12,204 nucleotides of DNA, taken from an uncultured archaeon. Its GTDB lineage: Archaea; Asgardarchaeota; Heimdallarchaeia; Heimdallarchaeales; Kariarchaeaceae. Positions 1,652 to 11,743 of the stretch are shown here, one piece after another. The first letter of the stretch is position 1. Every line of letters starts with the position of its first letter. A program made the translations under genes and the position numbers. The DNA is taken from positions 1 to 12,204 of the forward strand of contig CAZYCQ010000059.1 of assembly GCA_964645535.1 (NCBI GenBank). Direction: 5' to 3'. The notes below the pieces were generated by a model that was given only the letters and a program-made list of their open reading frames with translations, was not told the DNA's origin and ran no database searches.

Positions 1652-2698
1652 TTATCGTGTATCCCTCAACAGATTCATTAGGGCTCTTGGAACATCCTCA
1701 TGTGAACTGACAGGTGCAAAACGTCCTTTTCCTTTCCGAGCCATATCTTTACATAATCGTTGTCCCCAGTCATATTTGGAGGGGAGTCCCAAAACATGAA
1801 GCTTTGGAAAACGATGGAGTTGCTTTCTTGGATCTCCTCCTCTATTGAAGACACCATCTGTCACTAAAATCGCAAATTTGTTTCGATTTCTCATTTTTTC
1901 CAGCTCTACACCTGCCATGATCAACGCTTCTGTAATATTTGTATATCCCGCACTTTCTGCCTCAAGAATACGGTCAATCAAATGGTTGATTGGCACACGT
2001 TCTCGCGCTCGCTTGATCAAGTATGGTTTTGTGTTGAACAGAACAATTGCATACTCGTCATGTGCAAGATGATATGCCATGACAGCCACAGCTAAGGCTG
2101 CTGTGGTAAACCGTTCCCCAAACAATGATCCTGAGGTATCAAAAATTAAAACCCCTGATTTTGTCTTTTCTCTTTTTTCCAACGCTACAATGTTGTCATA
2201 AGTTAAATATCCTGTTTCCATAAAGTTTTCCAAGGTTGCTTCTTCATCAAAATCATCTGCATCTGGAGAATATTCGGTCTGTATCCAGATGTTTCCACGA
2301 AGTCCTCTCCCAATGATTCCTTCTGATACTTTCAGGATGCTTCGCCGTGCAAGACGCTTGAAAATTGGTTTTGCCTTTTCACTCATTGAGCCCCGTAGCA
2401 TGAAAAACAGGTTCGGTGCACTATTGTCGCCTGAAGCTGCTCGACGTCCGAGTAATTGAAAGCCTTGTGGGCTCTCCATTGCATCGGCAACAGCTGCGGG
2501 ATTGGATATTGCCAATCCTTGGATAGCTGGCATATTTTCTACCTCAATTGCCTTTTCTGCTGAATCCCGAATAGTCATGAAATCCATTCCTTTTGATAGT
2601 TGGTGATATTTCATCGGGTTACGACGACCTCGAACTATTTCAGCTTCCAGTAACTTTTTCTTGTCCATTTTTCCTCGAAATGAGGGCATCCGCTTCAT
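1652..2698 (-). CDS. von Willebrand factor A (MIDAS) domain protein, CoxE/ChlD-like MoxR partner; frame open upstream to 2746, possibly expressed as a -1 frameshift fusion with the AAA+ gene
   Basis: Complete MIDAS motif: DTSGS (DxSxS), GYTNI (T) and LVTDG (D). Preceded by the CoxE-like segment DFDEEATLE. Adjacent to a MoxR ATPase. Confidence 0.9.
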   Translation of the reverse strand: MKRMPSFRGKMDKKKLLEAEIVRGRRNPMKYHQLSKGMDFMTIRDSAEKAIEVENMPAIQGLAISNPAAVADAMESPQGFQLLGRRAASGDNSAPNLFFMLRGSMSEKAKPIFKRLARRSILKVSEGIIGRGLRGNIWIQTEYSPDADDFDEEATLENFMETGYLTYDNIVALEKREKTKSGVLIFDTSGSLFGERFTTAALAVAVMAYHLAHDEYAIVLFNTKPYLIKRARERVPINHLIDRILEAESAGYTNITEALIMAGVELEKMRNRNKFAILVTDGVFNRGGDPRKQLHRFPKLHVLGLPSKYDWGQRLCKDMARKGKGRFAPVSSHEDVPRALMNLLRDTR

Positions 2699-2707
2699 GA
2701 GATCATC

Positions 2708-2746
2708 AGAGAGCTGGTCCCAGCTCCCTTCACTCAGAAAAAATTT
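2708..2746 (-). other. Putative -1 programmed ribosomal frameshift signal (slippery heptamers, 7-nt spacer, stem-loop)
   Basis: Minus strand reads GAA AAT TTT TTC TGA GTGA AGGGAGCTG-GGAC-CAGCTCTCT. Heptamers A_AAT_TTT (2746-2740) and T_TTT_TTC (2743-2737). 9-bp stem at 2729-2708. The -1 frame is the VWA frame. Confidence 0.78.
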
Positions 2747-3606
2747 TCATCCTCCAGGATTTCAAGGATGATATCGCTTAGAACGTCTTCAACCCGGCGT
2801 TCGATCCCATCCTCAAGTTCAACTTTAGTGGCCAATGCCATGACTCCAGCCTCAATCCAGGATTCCCTCTGTTCAACATCCATAAATCGCAATAGGCTGG
2901 CAAAATCAATTGCTCCACGTATGGAACTTCCACGTCGAAGATCTGGCCAATTGCGTGTTTGGCGTGTAATTTTCACCACAACACGGACAACATCGTCATT
3001 GGTTAATCCAGAACGAATTTTTACAATCTTTTGTTCTTCTTCCTCACTCTGATATTCCAATCGAACCCAAGCAAAACGATCTTTCAATGCCTCGCTCAGT
3101 GGTGTAGTTGCAACAAATTCTTGTGGATTCATTGCACTGATAATATAAAATCCATCAGCGCTCTTGACTGAACCCAATTTAGGAATGATGACCTGCTTTT
3201 CATCCATTGCTGAGAGCAAAACGTTTTGGGTTCCTTCCGGCATACGATTTAATTCATTCAAAAATAAAATCGCACCTTTCTGCATTGCACTTACAAGAGG
3301 TCCTACTACAAAAGATTCCCAGGTATATCCCTTTTGCATAACCATTGGCGGATCAAAATGGCCGACCAAACGTGCAGCATTATATCGTTCGTCACCATCC
3401 ACTCGCTCCAGATTCTGCGAAAAATAACTAGCTATTGCATGTGCCAAAGTGGTTTTACCAACACCAACATCCCCTTCCAACAAGAGATGTTTTCCAGCCA
3501 ACTTTGCTGCCAAACATTTCCTTAGCTCGACCTCCCTTCCTACAATATTAAAACGTGTTTGGATATCCTTGATCATTTCATCTAACTTAACCTGTTCTGT
3601 CATCAT
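2734..3606 (-). CDS. MoxR-family AAA+ ATPase (CoxD/GvpN-like)
   Basis: Walker A GDVGVGKT, Walker B variant ILFLNELNR, sensor I AMNP, Arg finger LSEALKDRF, sensor II SIRGAI. Confidence 0.92.
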   Translation of the reverse strand: MMTEQVKLDEMIKDIQTRFNIVGREVELRKCLAAKLAGKHLLLEGDVGVGKTTLAHAIASYFSQNLERVDGDERYNAARLVGHFDPPMVMQKGYTWESFVVGPLVSAMQKGAILFLNELNRMPEGTQNVLLSAMDEKQVIIPKLGSVKSADGFYIISAMNPQEFVATTPLSEALKDRFAWVRLEYQSEEEEQKIVKIRSGLTNDDVVRVVVKITRQTRNWPDLRRGSSIRGAIDFASLLRFMDVEQRESWIEAGVMALATKVELEDGIERRVEDVLSDIILEILEDENFF

Positions 3607-4486: not shown

Positions 4487-5095
4487 ATGTTGGATGCAGG
4501 TATAGTAATTTTGACTTCAGATTTTCGATTGGCATATAAGGTTCAATCGTTGCTTTCGGGTCGTTTTTCACGCCTTATTCACAGTGTTGATCCATCGGAT
4601 GTTCATAATAGTGATATCGTGATCACAACCTATCGAGAATTTTTGGAAAACAATTTTGATCGGGTACTTCGTTTTTCAAGCCATCGATCTGTGACATTGA
4701 CAAGTCTATTGTCCGGCATCAATTCTTTTTTCACACAACCTACTGGATTATGCCTAGTGGGTGTGGATCCAGGAAAGACAGTTGGTGTTGGCTTAATCTT
4801 CAATGGTTCTGTTTTATCGACACGAACATTTACTGATTTATATGCTTTGGTTACTTGGCTCCGGAAAGAATTATCATTATTGGCATATGAGGAGTTGATA
4901 TTCCGAATTGGTGATGGGGGTGATAAATACCATGAACCGTTAGTGGATCTTTTGTTCAAGGAATTTAGTCATTTGGGGTCATTTGAATTGGTAAATGAAA
5001 CTCGTACTTCTGTGAAAGTAGGATCCCGTTCATTGCATGAAGAAGCCGCTTTACGAATTGCCCGTCGATATGGTGTTCGAATTGAAGAACATTAA
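4487..5095 (+). CDS. RNase H-fold (YqgF/RuvC-like) putative nuclease with an extra N-terminal alpha/beta domain
   Basis: LVGVDPGKTVGVGL (hhGhDPG), FRIGDG, LVNETRTS and HEEAALRIA are YqgF-like motifs. Start could be 4466 or 4487. Confidence 0.7.
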   Translation: MLDAGIVILTSDFRLAYKVQSLLSGRFSRLIHSVDPSDVHNSDIVITTYREFLENNFDRVLRFSSHRSVTLTSLLSGINSFFTQPTGLCLVGVDPGKTVGVGLIFNGSVLSTRTFTDLYALVTWLRKELSLLAYEELIFRIGDGGDKYHEPLVDLLFKEFSHLGSFELVNETRTSVKVGSRSLHEEAALRIARRYGVRIEEH

Positions 5096-5931
5096 TCAAG
5101 TCCGAGATTGAATTTTTTGACATATTCAAGGATTTTGTAGGTGATTTTCGGGTCTTCCTCAGAAATATTTCCGACAACAATGGCTTGAGGAATATATTTA
5201 TTGCTAAGAATTGTTTTTACATCTTCTACTGATTTAATTCCTCCACCATAAATGGCATTTGGAACGATTGTCGGATAGCTATTCCCATTCATGGCTTGAG
5301 CTTCAAGAATATCTTGAATTAGATTTTTATTCATTCTTTGCTGTCCTGAGCCTGCCTCAATGTAGAACCATTTAAAAAAAGGGTCATTTCTTGCATCGAT
5401 AAAACGCTGTTTGATAGTTTCAGGATCGGGATTTGTATCTGCCTTTGTCCTTTTTGCAGCTTTTCCTCCCATTGGATGATATGCAAGTGGGTAAATTTCA
5501 GCCTTAAGAAATGGAGATAAGAGTTTTGTCAAAAATTTTGCCTTGAAAAGGAGATAATTGCTGGTTGAATTAATGGGAATAGGGGCAAAAATAAACTTTG
5601 GCCCTCTAATGAGATGTTGTGTGCTGCTTGGAAAAAGGCCAATGGCAGAATCAAAAGAATTCTTGTACTTTTCTGGAGTAAGACCTGGGATATAAGGTGG
5701 ATTATCTCTTTTTTTTATGTGGTGAAGGATTTTCTTGTACATTTTCTTGTATCTTCTTTTTGTAACGAATCGTTCTGAGGCACCCAACAAAGCAAAGTTG
5801 TCGTCTTCTATCTCAAATATTTGGTAAAATTCTTCTGAGTAAAGGTCAATTTTTGCTGGATCTGCGAGAATTCCAAGATGGACTTTCAATGTTTTTATTG
5901 AAGAATCTTGCGATTTAACTTTGGTGTTCAA
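5092..5931 (-). CDS. Geranylgeranylglyceryl-phosphate synthase family protein (PcrB/GGGPS, group II-like, divergent)
   Basis: Motifs ADPAK, LLGAS, LFPS, INS, YIEAGSG, YGGGIKS and IVVGN in the canonical order. TTG start overlaps the upstream gene. Confidence 0.85.
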   Translation of the reverse strand: MNTKVKSQDSSIKTLKVHLGILADPAKIDLYSEEFYQIFEIEDDNFALLGASERFVTKRRYKKMYKKILHHIKKRDNPPYIPGLTPEKYKNSFDSAIGLFPSSTQHLIRGPKFIFAPIPINSTSNYLLFKAKFLTKLLSPFLKAEIYPLAYHPMGGKAAKRTKADTNPDPETIKQRFIDARNDPFFKWFYIEAGSGQQRMNKNLIQDILEAQAMNGNSYPTIVPNAIYGGGIKSVEDVKTILSNKYIPQAIVVGNISEEDPKITYKILEYVKKFNLGLD

Positions 5932-8010: not shown

Positions 8011-8448
8011 ATGGTAACAATCAAATTGAAAAATGAAATAATGGGTTTTTCTTCAGCTCATATTTCGAATATTGATGGACAATGGAGGCTTCACGGTCAT
8101 AATTTCCAAGTAGCAATAGATATGGAGGTACCGTCTGTAAATTGTGGCAATACTGGTTATTTTGAAGAAATTCGTAGAAAATTAAAGGTTTTGGATCACA
8201 AGGTCATTGTTCCTGAAAATTGCATTGTAAAAAAACAAGGATCTAATTTTATTGCATCATTTGAAGGAAATTTATTTACTTTCCCTATAAAGGATTCCTA
8301 TGTTATGAAGAGGAATTCAAGTGAAATTGTGGATCTTCTTGATGAAATTATCACGATTCTATCGGAATATGACCTTATCAGAGTTTCATTGTCTTATGAT
8401 GGGCTTACTTGGATCGAGAAGCGAATAAAAGGTTTAAGTGGAGGATAG
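8011..8448 (+). CDS. 6-pyruvoyl-tetrahydropterin synthase/QueD-like T-fold protein, divergent paralogue
   Basis: FSSAH, LHGHNF and LDHKVIVP are present. The Cys of CxxxHGH is absent (QWRLHGH). Confidence 0.75.
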   Translation: MVTIKLKNEIMGFSSAHISNIDGQWRLHGHNFQVAIDMEVPSVNCGNTGYFEEIRRKLKVLDHKVIVPENCIVKKQGSNFIASFEGNLFTFPIKDSYVMKRNSSEIVDLLDEIITILSEYDLIRVSLSYDGLTWIEKRIKGLSGG

Positions 8449-8462
8449 GTGTCAATTGATTA

Positions 8463-9377
8463 ATGAAAGTAGTCATCGCTGATCCTCTACATAAAAAAGT
8501 TAATGAAATATTGAAAAAAGCTGGAATGAAGGTTGTCGATGTTTCCTCGAACAAAGAGAGACTTGAAGCAGAATTGCAGGATGCCCAAGCATTGGTTGTC
8601 AGAAGTGCAACGAAAGTCAATCTAGATCTCCTTGAAAAGGCACCAATGCTAAAAATAATTGGTCGGGCAGGTGTTGGTCTTGATAATATAGATCTTGAAG
8701 CAGCAAAAAACAAGGGTATTCAGGTTGTTAATAGTCCTGAAGGTCCAACTGTAAGTGTAGCTGAATTTACTCTAGGATTGATGATTGCAGTTGCAAGAAA
8801 GTTTGGAATTGCGTATATGGGTACAAGAGAAGGAAAATGGCCAAAAAAACAGGCTAAAGGGATTGAATTGAGAGAAAAGACTCTTGGCATAATTGGATCT
8901 GGGGCTATTGGTGGTCAATTAGCTAAATATGCTATAGCCTTGGGCATGAAGGTCATTGCATATGATATTATTGAATATGATCACTTAAAATCATTAGACA
9001 ATTTCAAGTACGTCCCTTTGGAAACTTTGTTGAAGACTGCCGATTTTATATCACTCCATGTTCCTCTTGTTCCTGCAACAAAACATATGATTAATTCCGA
9101 AGCATTCAAAAAAATGAAAGATGGTGTTATTATCATCAACGCTGCAAGAGGTGGTGTTATTGATGAAAGTGCCCTTCTTGAATCATTGAATTCTGGAAAA
9201 GTTGCAGGTGCTGCTTTGGACGTTTTCGAAACTGAACCTCCTATCAATAAAGAACTTTTAGAACATCCCCAAGTCTTTGTAACTCCTCATATTGGTGCCA
9301 ACACAATTGAAGCCCAAGAAAAGAATGGGACTATTGTTGCACAAAAAATTGTCTCTTTCTTCAAGGCTGAATCCTAG
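8463..9377 (+). CDS. serA: D-3-phosphoglycerate dehydrogenase-like D-2-hydroxyacid dehydrogenase (short form, no ACT domain)
   Basis: VRSATKV, GRAGVGLDNID, GIIGSGAIG (Rossmann), LHVPL, INAARGG, LDVFETEP and TPHIGA. Confidence 0.88.
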   Translation: MKVVIADPLHKKVNEILKKAGMKVVDVSSNKERLEAELQDAQALVVRSATKVNLDLLEKAPMLKIIGRAGVGLDNIDLEAAKNKGIQVVNSPEGPTVSVAEFTLGLMIAVARKFGIAYMGTREGKWPKKQAKGIELREKTLGIIGSGAIGGQLAKYAIALGMKVIAYDIIEYDHLKSLDNFKYVPLETLLKTADFISLHVPLVPATKHMINSEAFKKMKDGVIIINAARGGVIDESALLESLNSGKVAGAALDVFETEPPINKELLEHPQVFVTPHIGANTIEAQEKNGTIVAQKIVSFFKAES

Positions 9378-9818: not shown

Positions 9819-10808
9819 ATGTCTGAAATAGATGTACACGTTGCCGAGTATAAATCGCTTCTCAAAGAGTTTGCAAAGACTTTCTTTTCCTATTTTGAAA
9901 AAGGTAGAGCACAGGCAATTTCCTGTAAAGAAAAAATCCTGATCTGCGGCATGGGGGGTTCTGCAATATCCGGTGATTATCTTAGAACAGTCCTCTCATA
10001 TTATAGCGATTGCGAAGTCGTTGTATCAAAGAGTTATGAACCACCAAATTTTGTGGATGAAACATGGTCCGTATTTGTCATTAGTTACTCAGGAAACACT
10101 GAAGAAACACTTTCCCAAGCCAAGATTTTATTAGACCGAGGAATCAAAATTGCAGTGATTTCTTCAGGTGGTATTTTAGGTAATCTAGCTAAAGAAAACA
10201 ATCTTCCTTTTTTCAAAGTTGAGGAGGGTCTTCAACCGAGAGCTGCTTTACCAAACCTTTTTGGAATTTTACTTGGTGCAGTTTACGATTCTTTTTCACT
10301 TCCACTAAACTTGGACATAATTCTTCCAGAACTTGAACAACATGTGAACATGTTGCATTCTCAAGAGCCATTCATGAAAAATCTAGCTTTTAGTCTAGTT
10401 TCAAGGTCTGTTTTTGTAATTTCTTCAACACTTTTTGGATCAGTGGGTTTGCGTTTTCGATGTCAACTAAATGAAAATTCAAAATTGCATGCCGCAAATT
10501 TTGAATCTCCTGAATTTAGTCATAATGCCATTATTGGATTTGATGGGAAAGGAGCAGATGTATTCTTCATTATTTTGAGATCGAAATATGAACATCCTAG
10601 AACAAAACTTCACCTTGACTTTTTGGAGAATCATTACAGAGATTCCATGGTTTCTCTTGAAGCAGAAGGCGATTCGCTTTTGACACAGATACTTTCAATA
10701 ACTGCCTTCCTTGATTATTTTTCTGTAGTCGCCGCAGAAATACAAGAAATCGACCCTTATACCATTACCTCGATCAACCTCTTAAAATCAGAGCTTAAAT
10801 CAAAATAG
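9819..10808 (+). CDS. Bifunctional phosphoglucose/phosphomannose isomerase (archaeal PGI/PMI, SIS domains)
   Basis: GMGGSAISGD, SYSGNTEETL, SSGG, QPRAA, QLNENSK and PEFSHN motifs. Confidence 0.92.
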   Translation: MSEIDVHVAEYKSLLKEFAKTFFSYFEKGRAQAISCKEKILICGMGGSAISGDYLRTVLSYYSDCEVVVSKSYEPPNFVDETWSVFVISYSGNTEETLSQAKILLDRGIKIAVISSGGILGNLAKENNLPFFKVEEGLQPRAALPNLFGILLGAVYDSFSLPLNLDIILPELEQHVNMLHSQEPFMKNLAFSLVSRSVFVISSTLFGSVGLRFRCQLNENSKLHAANFESPEFSHNAIIGFDGKGADVFFIILRSKYEHPRTKLHLDFLENHYRDSMVSLEAEGDSLLTQILSITAFLDYFSVVAAEIQEIDPYTITSINLLKSELKSK

Positions 10809-11393
10809 GAAATAAGCAATCCCAACATCTTCTAAACTATCTTGTTTAATCTTAGGTATCCAATATCCTTGACCCATTTCAACAACTCTGTCTCCAAAAA
10901 TAAATTGTTCGAAATCAGGTTTTGGAAAAGGTTGTCTCCAATCAATGGGATTCTTTTTTGTTTTTGAAAATGCTGCGGCATAACTTTTAATTTTGTTTGT
11001 TTTTTGGTCTCCCATAATTTCACTAAATTCTCGCAGAATTTTAGATCCCACCCACTTTACAGTTATATTTTCAAATTTAATGATAATGATCCCCTTTTTT
11101 TTAAAATCAAAAATTGAATTATATTGATTTACTTGATCTAATTCTTTTTTTGCATTTTGAAGACAATTAATCAAAAAATCATTTTTATTCTGAATAGATT
11201 TGGTATAAATTGAAAATTTAGTTATAAGTTCTCCAAAACGTTCACTGCTAATCCCAAACTTAATCGAATAATTGACTCTGATGAAAAGACCCGTGTAATA
11301 AAAAAACGTTCTTTTTTCTGGATTAATACTGATTTTTCTTGCAAATTCTGAGATGATAAATGCATCTCTAAACCTTCCATTGGGCTTCATCAT
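10800..11393 (-). CDS. Hypothetical basic protein, translationally coupled to queD
   Basis: Long ORF in very AT-rich DNA. ATG at 11393 overlaps the queD stop (ATGA). No recognisable motif. Confidence 0.6.
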   Translation of the reverse strand: MMKPNGRFRDAFIISEFARKISINPEKRTFFYYTGLFIRVNYSIKFGISSERFGELITKFSIYTKSIQNKNDFLINCLQNAKKELDQVNQYNSIFDFKKKGIIIIKFENITVKWVGSKILREFSEIMGDQKTNKIKSYAAAFSKTKKNPIDWRQPFPKPDFEQFIFGDRVVEMGQGYWIPKIKQDSLEDVGIAYFLF

Positions 11394-11743
11394 TCGTTCC
11401 TCAACCATTCTTCTTCAGCATAGGAATCCTTATCTTCCCATATTCGAACTTTTACCCATTGGAAATTGTCCTTTTCTGGAAGTTTTAAGATTTCCTCCAA
11501 TAACTTCAAGACAAGATTTTCGACTGTAGGTTGCTCAATTACATCGTTCAGGAAGATATGGTCGAATTTATTGATTGATTGTTTGAGGTGTGTAAAATCA
11601 ACTATCATTCCTGAGTTATTGACTTTCCCTCCTATTTCGACTTCAATCAAATAATTATGCCCATGAGTTCTCTGACATTTACTTTCATAAGGAAGATAAA
11701 GTCTATGGGCAGACGAAATTTCAGCCCGATAGAATATTTTCAT
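11390..11743 (-). CDS. queD: 6-carboxy-5,6,7,8-tetrahydropterin synthase (preQ0/archaeosine pathway)
   Basis: SSAHRL, CQRTHGHNY (CxxxHGH), GMIVDF, FDHIFLN and PTVENL; all catalytic and Zn-binding residues are present. Confidence 0.9.
   Translation of the reverse strand: MKIFYRAEISSAHRLYLPYESKCQRTHGHNYLIEVEIGGKVNNSGMIVDFTHLKQSINKFDHIFLNDVIEQPTVENLVLKLLEEILKLPEKDNFQWVKVRIWEDKDSYAEEEWLRNE

Follow-up and report, generated by a model that had tools for sequence, protein, structure and literature searches.

A probable programmed −1 frameshift joining a NorQ-like ATPase to a VWA protein in Asgard archaea

The window analysed here, a 12,204-nucleotide stretch of DNA of an Asgard archaeon from a hot-spring metagenome, carries on its minus strand what appear to be two genes, one for an AAA+ ATPase and one for a VWA-domain protein. 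These are very probably one recoded gene, in this archaeon and in most of its phylum. Judging from comparative sequence analysis, programmed −1 frameshifting would yield two products, a NorQ-like ATPase (290 aa) and an ATPase-VWA fusion (651 aa), a reading to which we assign a probability of about 0.87. Recoding of this kind had been proposed in a sequence-only reading of the window and is now strongly supported by the conserved phase, the slip site, the open frame, VWA frames devoid of start codons and natural fusions. The locus is not previously described in the literature found and is a variant of the known recoded AAA+/AAA+-VWA architecture. Literature on MoxR/VWA, Asgard or kink-turn-stimulated frameshifting, apart from the gene set of Antonov 2020 (MBE), yielded nothing relevant. 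A 2021 review counted one demonstrated archaeal cellular −1 frameshift and asked whether more exist (PMC8211752).

Locus organization

The ORF, heptamers, hairpin and TGA codons of the sequence-only reading were all found at their coordinates on the minus strand, on which all features of the locus given below lie. The ATPase ORF (2734..3606) encodes the zero-frame product of 290 aa, with AAA_5/AAA_3 similarity and of the NorQ/CbbQ/GvpN-like MoxR class, and ends at the stop TGA 2734..2736. The −1 frame is closed by a TGA (2747..2749) just 5′ of the slip site, leaving an overlap of 10 nt, and is then, as had been claimed, open into the VWA region, with no stop in the window sequence from 2746 to 1652. 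Two overlapping, correctly phased heptamers are present: A_AAU_UUU (A_AAT_TTT, 2740..2746), the conserved −1 slip heptamer of the aligned −1 loci, and U_UUU_UUC (T_TTT_TTC, 2737..2743). Translation confirmed the expected lengths of the ORF and of the predicted fusion (290 and 651 aa), and the junction peptide is identical from either heptamer; the predicted tryptic junction peptide of the 651-aa fusion ends ...DENFFLSEGSWDQLSDDLMK.

The −1 frame (1652..2740) would add 362 aa after the shift: a linker of ~23 aa modelled with low confidence, a helical bundle, a beta-finger and a VWA domain. The MIDAS DxSxS motif of the latter (DTSGS, 2126..2140) is invariant in 71 homologues, as is a later Asp. 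Candidate internal ATG codons at 2698, 2689 and 2668 (2666..2698), the last preceded by GAGG, are possible but unconserved independent starts.

At 240-1567 of the window, a protein of 213 aa that begins like gelsolin is encoded between two helical paralogues of 106 aa each, which look TerB-like by eye; none has a Pfam match. These TerB-like and gelsolin-like neighbours recur in only three loci, all of the window's family; homologues occur near the locus in just two further genomes of that family and do not directly adjoin it. The segments 5092-5931, 8011-8448, 8463-9377, 9819-10808 and 11390-11743 hold housekeeping neighbours, namely a PcrB-family gene and, by eye, two QueD-like genes, one phosphoglycerate-dehydrogenase-like gene and one sugar isomerase. 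Across 21 loci, no conserved client gene was found within ±6 kb and no neighbour is kept beyond the family. A sigma-70 promoter and terminator scan, a method not suited to archaea, remained at chance level.

Conservation of the −1 phase

All 30 nearest homologues have the VWA frame at −1. The archaeal locus set (n = 132) covered the order, class and phylum of the window and a second phylum of small genomes, inferred to be Korarchaeota-like. By VWA phase, 114 of these loci are at −1, 11 at +1 and seven are fused in frame, and each −1 locus has an in-phase slip site; the alignment of homologous junctions, suggested earlier as a check, thus gave a phase that is not random. The −1 state was found in 16 Asgard families, the groups including (under their database names) Ca. 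Heimdallarchaeum, Jordarchaeales, Baldrarchaeia, Asgardarchaeia and Lokiarchaeota, and a homologous locus was present in 43 of 43 genomes of the Korarchaeota-like phylum; such locus counts overstate independence because the genomes are related. Several Asgard families gave no match at the search threshold used, and one query for relatives in viral contigs returned none. All 27 loci scored in Bdellovibrionota are at −1, nearly all with A_AAA_AAN, and distant Asgard paralogues use A-runs. The bacterial homologues L176-L205 (Bdellovibrionota) show −1 phase throughout; they carry A_AAA_AAG or longer A-runs and lack a kink-turn. The congeneric genome G001 has two copies of the locus (L002 and L031), which share 98% and 92% identity with the window; each is in −1 phase, and their stems covary.

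The homopolymer run at the junction and the abundance of fused homologues could point to an assembly indel or a pseudogene of a simply fused gene. The probability of this is practically negligible: in a second sample (X2, with X1 possibly the source sample), one contig spans 2202-3128, including the A4T6 run, with 0 differences and 0 gaps, and the same phase recurs in 114 independent assemblies, closed Ca. Heimdallarchaeum genomes among them, with both halves conserved.

Within the 19 codons past the ATPase stop, stops counted over 91 loci number 0 in the −1 frame, 47 in the 0 frame and 84 in the +1 frame, the last figure being inflated because GATGA is conserved. At 26 of 89 Asgard −1 loci, from seven families, the earliest ATG, GTG or TTG lies more than 30 nt into homologous VWA-frame sequence, and the first start codon of the f18 loci lies at +269 and +605.

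Start codons are central to the view that the locus consists of two translationally coupled genes. The VWA protein would then start at ATG 2698 or 2668, or, in the Korarchaeota-like phylum, at the ATG of GAUGA, and the kink-turn predicted at the junction would repress or couple initiation as in l7ae leaders; repression of translation through L7Ae and kink-turns is known (PMC5539422). In the Korarchaeota-like phylum, GAUGA provides an ATG in the VWA frame, which overlaps the ATPase stop as ATGA in nine loci. The sequence-only reading had named independent initiation at ATG 2698 as a rival. Even within the genus that codon is not kept, Leu taking its place in L004. Every locus of the window's order nevertheless offers some ATG no more than 70 nt from the stop, and extra independent VWA initiation may occur there. 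Met 2668 aligns with V/I of fused proteins, inside a conserved F-G-K/R motif, and the 26 Asgard −1 loci above have no usable start codon. Coupling also fails to explain why the U-run is invariant and keeps a fixed distance of 8 nt, why a UUU_CGN variant exists at +1 loci and why the spacer is free of stops. As a replacement for frameshifting it is improbable; it may operate alongside it.

Slip site

At all 114 −1 loci an in-phase N_NNT_TTY lies inside the overlap, at most two codons from the stop in 97 of them. The P-site codons are GAT, AAT, GGT, CGT, GTT, CAT and CTT, all ending in T; with one locus taken per family, the chance of seven P-site codons all being NNU is ~1e-4 by codon usage. 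The first base is repeated (X_XN) in 96 of the 114 loci versus a background of ~26% before Asp codons. The family consensus is X_XNU_UUY, represented by G_GAU_UUU, A_AAU_UUY, G_GGU_UUY, C_CGU_UUU and others, and heptamers starting with G_GA and G_GU are known viral variants (PMC5009743). By this comparison, the homologous slip site in the window is the upstream A_AAU_UUU at 2746-2740. The second heptamer, U_UUU_UUC, is common in the window's order and in family f5, but not phylum-wide; hence, the slip site proposed earlier is retained in its upstream heptamer and the 7-nt spacer, which had been counted from U_UUU_UUC, is not a feature of the phylum.

A run such as A4T6 might also act during transcription, the RNA polymerase inserting one base and producing an in-frame fused mRNA. 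Bacterial and paralogous loci have runs of A7-A11, and the efficiency of fs-chlD frameshifting rises with A-run length (PMC3711429). However, most archaeal −1 sites hold merely T4 (G_GAT_TTT), selection on codon phase and on a repeated first base is a signature of tRNA re-pairing, and the +1 class requires CGN in the A site. Programmed transcriptional slippage is thus very improbable as the general explanation. Paralogues of f5 (L051 and L052 versus L068) differ between the fused and the split state by one A in a run of 10-11 A, and for them polymerase slippage is more plausible.

Structured element downstream of the slip site

A 9-bp hairpin with a GGAC loop (2708..2729) had been noted after the slip site. 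It is present and its pairs covary, but its reading as a plain hairpin was not upheld: the element at 2736-2698 matches the standard kink-turn consensus, and the putative stimulator is better read as a kink-turn. The standard motif consists of a canonical stem, a 3-nt bulge and tandem G.A pairs (McPhee 2014, PMC4382518; PMC5539422). In the predicted fold the hairpin is the canonical (C) stem. The non-bulged, box-D-like strand UGAGU-GA (2730..2736) starts with the zero-frame stop TGA and has G2n/A1n at 2731-2730, that is, +9/+10 after the heptamer. The bulged, box-C-like strand (2698..2707) comprises the bulge GAU (2707-2705), G1b/A2b (2704-2703), U3b (2702) and CUCA (2701-2698), which pairs with UGAG; 3b.3n is U.U.

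The hairpin alone only modestly exceeds shuffled sequences (z of −2.15 for 37 nt and −1.0 to −1.4 for 71-150 nt), and therefore the single window could not prove it. Folding energy and z-score have their sole peak at +3 to +9 after the heptamer. Among the 114 −1 loci, G stands at +9 in 99 and A at +10 in 104, the tandem GA being located 8 nt and the canonical stem 10 nt past the heptamer. A strict kink-turn pattern begins at +9 in 54 of the 114 loci, spanning ten Asgard families and the Korarchaeota-like phylum, and at any other offset in no more than two (background 8e-5); a loose pattern gave a second peak at −5, an artefact of the heptamer that is gone under the strict pattern. The bulge is GAU in 48 and AAU in two of the 50 distinct strict-pattern sequences, and GA and AUGA are invariant in alignment A1.

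Loci chosen only for RAUGA (n = 60) have GA at +9 in 58 cases, and their first five stem pairs are 93% complementary versus 38–68% in slid controls. In 14 distinct sequences, seven of seven stem pairs vary on both sides and 95.7% are paired. The stem covariation is 0.63 versus 0.29 in shuffled and at most 0.21 in slid sequences, a control leaning toward the kink-turn because the structure was derived from the same sequences. The earlier suggestion that the hairpin be examined for covariation and spacing across loci thus led to a covarying stem and to a kink-turn pattern starting at a fixed +9. The non-canonical stem is paired 4/4 in the window, 71% in A1 and ~50–67% phylum-wide.

The reading of GAUGA differs between lineages, being GAU-GAN (Asp-Asp/Glu) in Asgard, whereas the Korarchaeota-like phylum reads NNG-AUG-A and thereby has an ATG in frame; the motif is therefore kept as RNA and not by protein constraint. 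In part of the Korarchaeota-like phylum (L154, L157, L158, L160, L163-L165, L167, L168 and L226), the AAA frame continues past the hairpin as far as the TGA within GATGA; these loci have an ATGA overlap with the VWA frame and keep the heptamer and the kink-turn spacing.

The bulged stem covers the stop codon, and mRNA introns occur in archaea (cbf5). A bulge-helix-bulge intron or processing site, whose excision would join the two frames, is nevertheless exceedingly improbable. By eye the geometry is that of a kink-turn, with one 3-nt bulge and tandem G.A, and not of two 3-nt bulges around a 4-bp helix. Moreover, the −1 frame runs through the element without a stop in 91 of 91 loci, and element lengths vary among loci in steps of 3, as a coding sequence would.

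The kink-turn is absent or degenerate in families f2, f5, f8, f12, f13 and several genera of f1. Since the slip site persists there, the kink-turn is not indispensable. The 3′ structure is weak in f2, f8 and f12, f5 carries a plain hairpin, and no kink-turn was found in any +1 or bacterial locus. A paralogue in f2 (L054-L060, 35–40% identical) combines an A-run and −1 phase with a kink-turn-like motif 12 nt past the A-run, a motif that the f2 orthologue has largely lost. An Rfam search of the element found no family near the threshold. Scanning the whole genome G000 for a heptamer, 8 nt and a kink-turn showed no enrichment of this spacing and no second convincing cassette. At G000:C1:5441-5473 (plus strand), a T-run leads into a kink-turn-like hairpin. 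The opposite strand carries an ORF of 217 codons resembling a membrane protein, and the hairpin's own strand has no matching long ORF.

The window's genome encodes two proteins of the L7Ae/L30e family, L7Ae in the region of G000:C21:17572-17832. The predicted kink-turn is of the type that L7Ae binds, and therefore the slip may be protein-controlled. Judging from its conservation, the kink-turn likely acts as the stimulator. The further proposal that L7Ae is needed for the frameshift or regulates it, both its binding and its effect being inferred, falls just short of an even chance.

+1 and fused loci

All 11 +1 loci (L033-L038, L104, L107, L115, L135 and L162) have an in-phase TTT TTT CGN (UUU_UUU_CGN) inside the overlap, the background being 2 in 100,249 codons. 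Influenza PA-X and amalgaviruses use an identical UUU_CGN core for +1 frameshifting (PMC3498833, PMC5052127); this signal concerns relatives and not the window. The +1 loci belong to five groups, f6, f21, f22, f23 and one second-phylum locus, which are not one clade in a quick tree (no formal test).

The search for natural in-frame AAA-VWA fusions that had been recommended revealed more than 100, of ~600–720 aa, in Bathyarchaeia, Nitrososphaerales, Methanomethylicia and Njordarchaeales. The slip motif is missing at the protein level in 103 of 120 fused homologues. Fused genes of Njordarchaeales (L106, L109 and L111) keep TTT TTT CGN where the AAA part meets the linker (codon 290) and have a stop in the +1 frame 2–4 codons on, and a Bathyarchaeota fusion (L234) has TTT TTT CGN in its linker. 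From their sequences, such fused genes probably have reversed polarity, being long by default and giving the short ATPase by +1 slippage. Two fused-gene genomes, both small and probably incomplete, have no separate short paralogue; together with the fusions that have no slip motif, this means that the short subunit may not always be needed.

In L053 (G013:C74) and L136/L139/L140/L141 (f19), the short ATPase and the long ATPase-VWA protein are separate genes, adjacent in L053, which recalls chlI plus chlD. At G000:C2:25241-28102 (L070), a second AAA_5 gene is followed directly past its TGA, in the same frame, by a 647-codon VWA frame with a TTG start 9 nt beyond the TGA.

Protein families

The AAA_5/AAA_3 ATPase adjoins a VWA domain with an intact MIDAS, and its best single-domain PDB match is NorQ (50 bits). 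The ATPase stays below the curated cut-offs of the named subfamilies (NorQ, GvpN and MadB), the best scores being 88 versus 475 and 70 versus 267 bits. The structure model covers the −1 product alone (pLDDT 87). It starts with ~23 low-confidence residues that lead into a helical bundle, followed by a beta-finger and a VWA fold; its top four fold matches are NorD in NorQD complexes. According to the model and these similarities, the VWA half is NorD-like in fold and the ATPase is NorQ-like, neither a chelatase nor a midasin. NorQ/NorD and CbbQ/CbbO are likewise MoxR-VWA pairs (PMC9976466), and shared features are the intact MIDAS and the beta-finger that precedes the VWA core. Unlike in those systems, where the adaptor is a separate gene, it would here be tethered to the ATPase subunit by the predicted recoding.

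Midasin was rejected as the closest relative: its top PDB rank is a sum over six domains, the best of which scores 36 bits. The comparison with midasin/Rea1/Mdn1 drawn in the sequence-only reading survives as a conceptual analogy, with AAA_5-type module(s) and a MIDAS in one chain, but there is one AAA module here versus six, the per-domain similarity is lower than to NorQ and no orthology signal was found. The main text of Eme 2023 makes no mention of Mdn1, MoxR or frameshifts. Identification as a chelatase subunit was rejected as well. On the ATPase half, the ChlD/CobT profiles TIGR02031 and TIGR02442 score 28 and 26.1, far below their cut-offs of 499.55 and 779.45, and the CobN/ChlH large subunit (PF02514) was not found in the window's genome, which is 89.4% complete. 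Some published fs-chlD genomes are likewise without CobN/ChlH (PMC9227772).

Discussion

In the proposed mechanism, most ribosomes would halt at UGA 2736 and release the 290-aa NorQ-like AAA+ subunit. A minority, with tRNA-Asn and tRNA-Phe on A_AAU_UUU, would be made to pause by a structured element located at the mRNA entry channel and would slip back one base, producing the 651-aa AAA+-linker-helical bundle-VWA(MIDAS) protein. The pausing element would be the kink-turn, with tandem G.A pairs from 9 nt past the heptamer, and L7Ae would probably bind and stiffen it; part of the non-canonical stem would sit inside the ribosome at slippage, which counts against the kink-turn. Both products probably form a ring of mostly short subunits with one or few VWA adaptors, which would remodel a client. 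A NorQ hexamer carries one NorD (NorQ6:NorD1; PMC9976466), and by this analogy a minority long subunit is sensible. A role of the two products in setting stoichiometry has, on the same analogy, roughly even odds.

Among the closest known systems is fs-chlD, which the earlier reading had also named (Antonov 2013, PMC3711429; Kuznetsov 2022, PMC9227772; Atkins 2016, PMC5009743). The likeness holds insofar as one gene gives a short AAA+ and a long AAA+-VWA protein by frameshifting, −1 shifts are commoner than +1, AT-rich slip sites are accompanied by 3′ structure, fused and split relatives coexist and some archaea are included. It does not extend to the ATPase, which by profile score belongs to another AAA+ subfamily. 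The archaeal sites also differ, X_XNU_UUY here versus A_AAA_AAR there, and a kink-turn stimulator is absent from the text of PMC3711429, PMC9227772 and PMC5009743. The fucA1 gene of Sulfolobus (De Lise 2021, PMC8211752) is similarly a cellular archaeal −1 frameshift gene with a heptamer and a stem-loop; however, it is strain-specific, most Sulfolobales genes being full length, whereas the site described here is kept across the phylum and beyond.

L7Ae/kink-turn control (Daume 2017, PMC5539422) likewise involves a kink-turn consensus with box C/D-like strands within archaeal mRNA. The known cases repress translation, whereas the motif predicted here lies at a fixed distance past a slip site. 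Protein-stimulated frameshifting of cardioviruses and arteriviruses (PMC5009743) offers a further parallel in its non-canonical XXX heptamers (G_GA, G_GU) and a possible protein roadblock. In contrast to viral frameshifting, the gene here is a cellular archaeal one, and the proposed stimulator is a host ribosomal/sRNP protein.

Based on sequence comparison, we tentatively suggest an ancient frameshift common to Asgard and the Korarchaeota-like phylum, with an L7Ae-bound kink-turn as the stimulator. Where the kink-turn was lost, its place would have been taken by plain hairpins, by a +1 UUU_CGN slip or by in-frame fusion with the same +1 slip making the short form. Taken as a whole, this scenario is somewhat short of even odds.

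In most Asgard genomes, current annotation treats this probable single gene as two and assigns the VWA half a presumably false start. The locus is a phylum-wide, deeply conserved candidate; with its defined site, an RNA element at a fixed distance and natural −1, +1 and fused variants, it makes archaeal frameshifting directly testable. The cassette is also a short, portable candidate for a protein-switchable frameshift. If true, a kink-turn stimulator would represent a new type of signal for frameshifting, and L7Ae would gain a role in elongation. A cellular frameshift would then be under the control of a host RNA-binding protein, and the ratio of ATPase to ATPase-VWA protein would be tied to free L7Ae.
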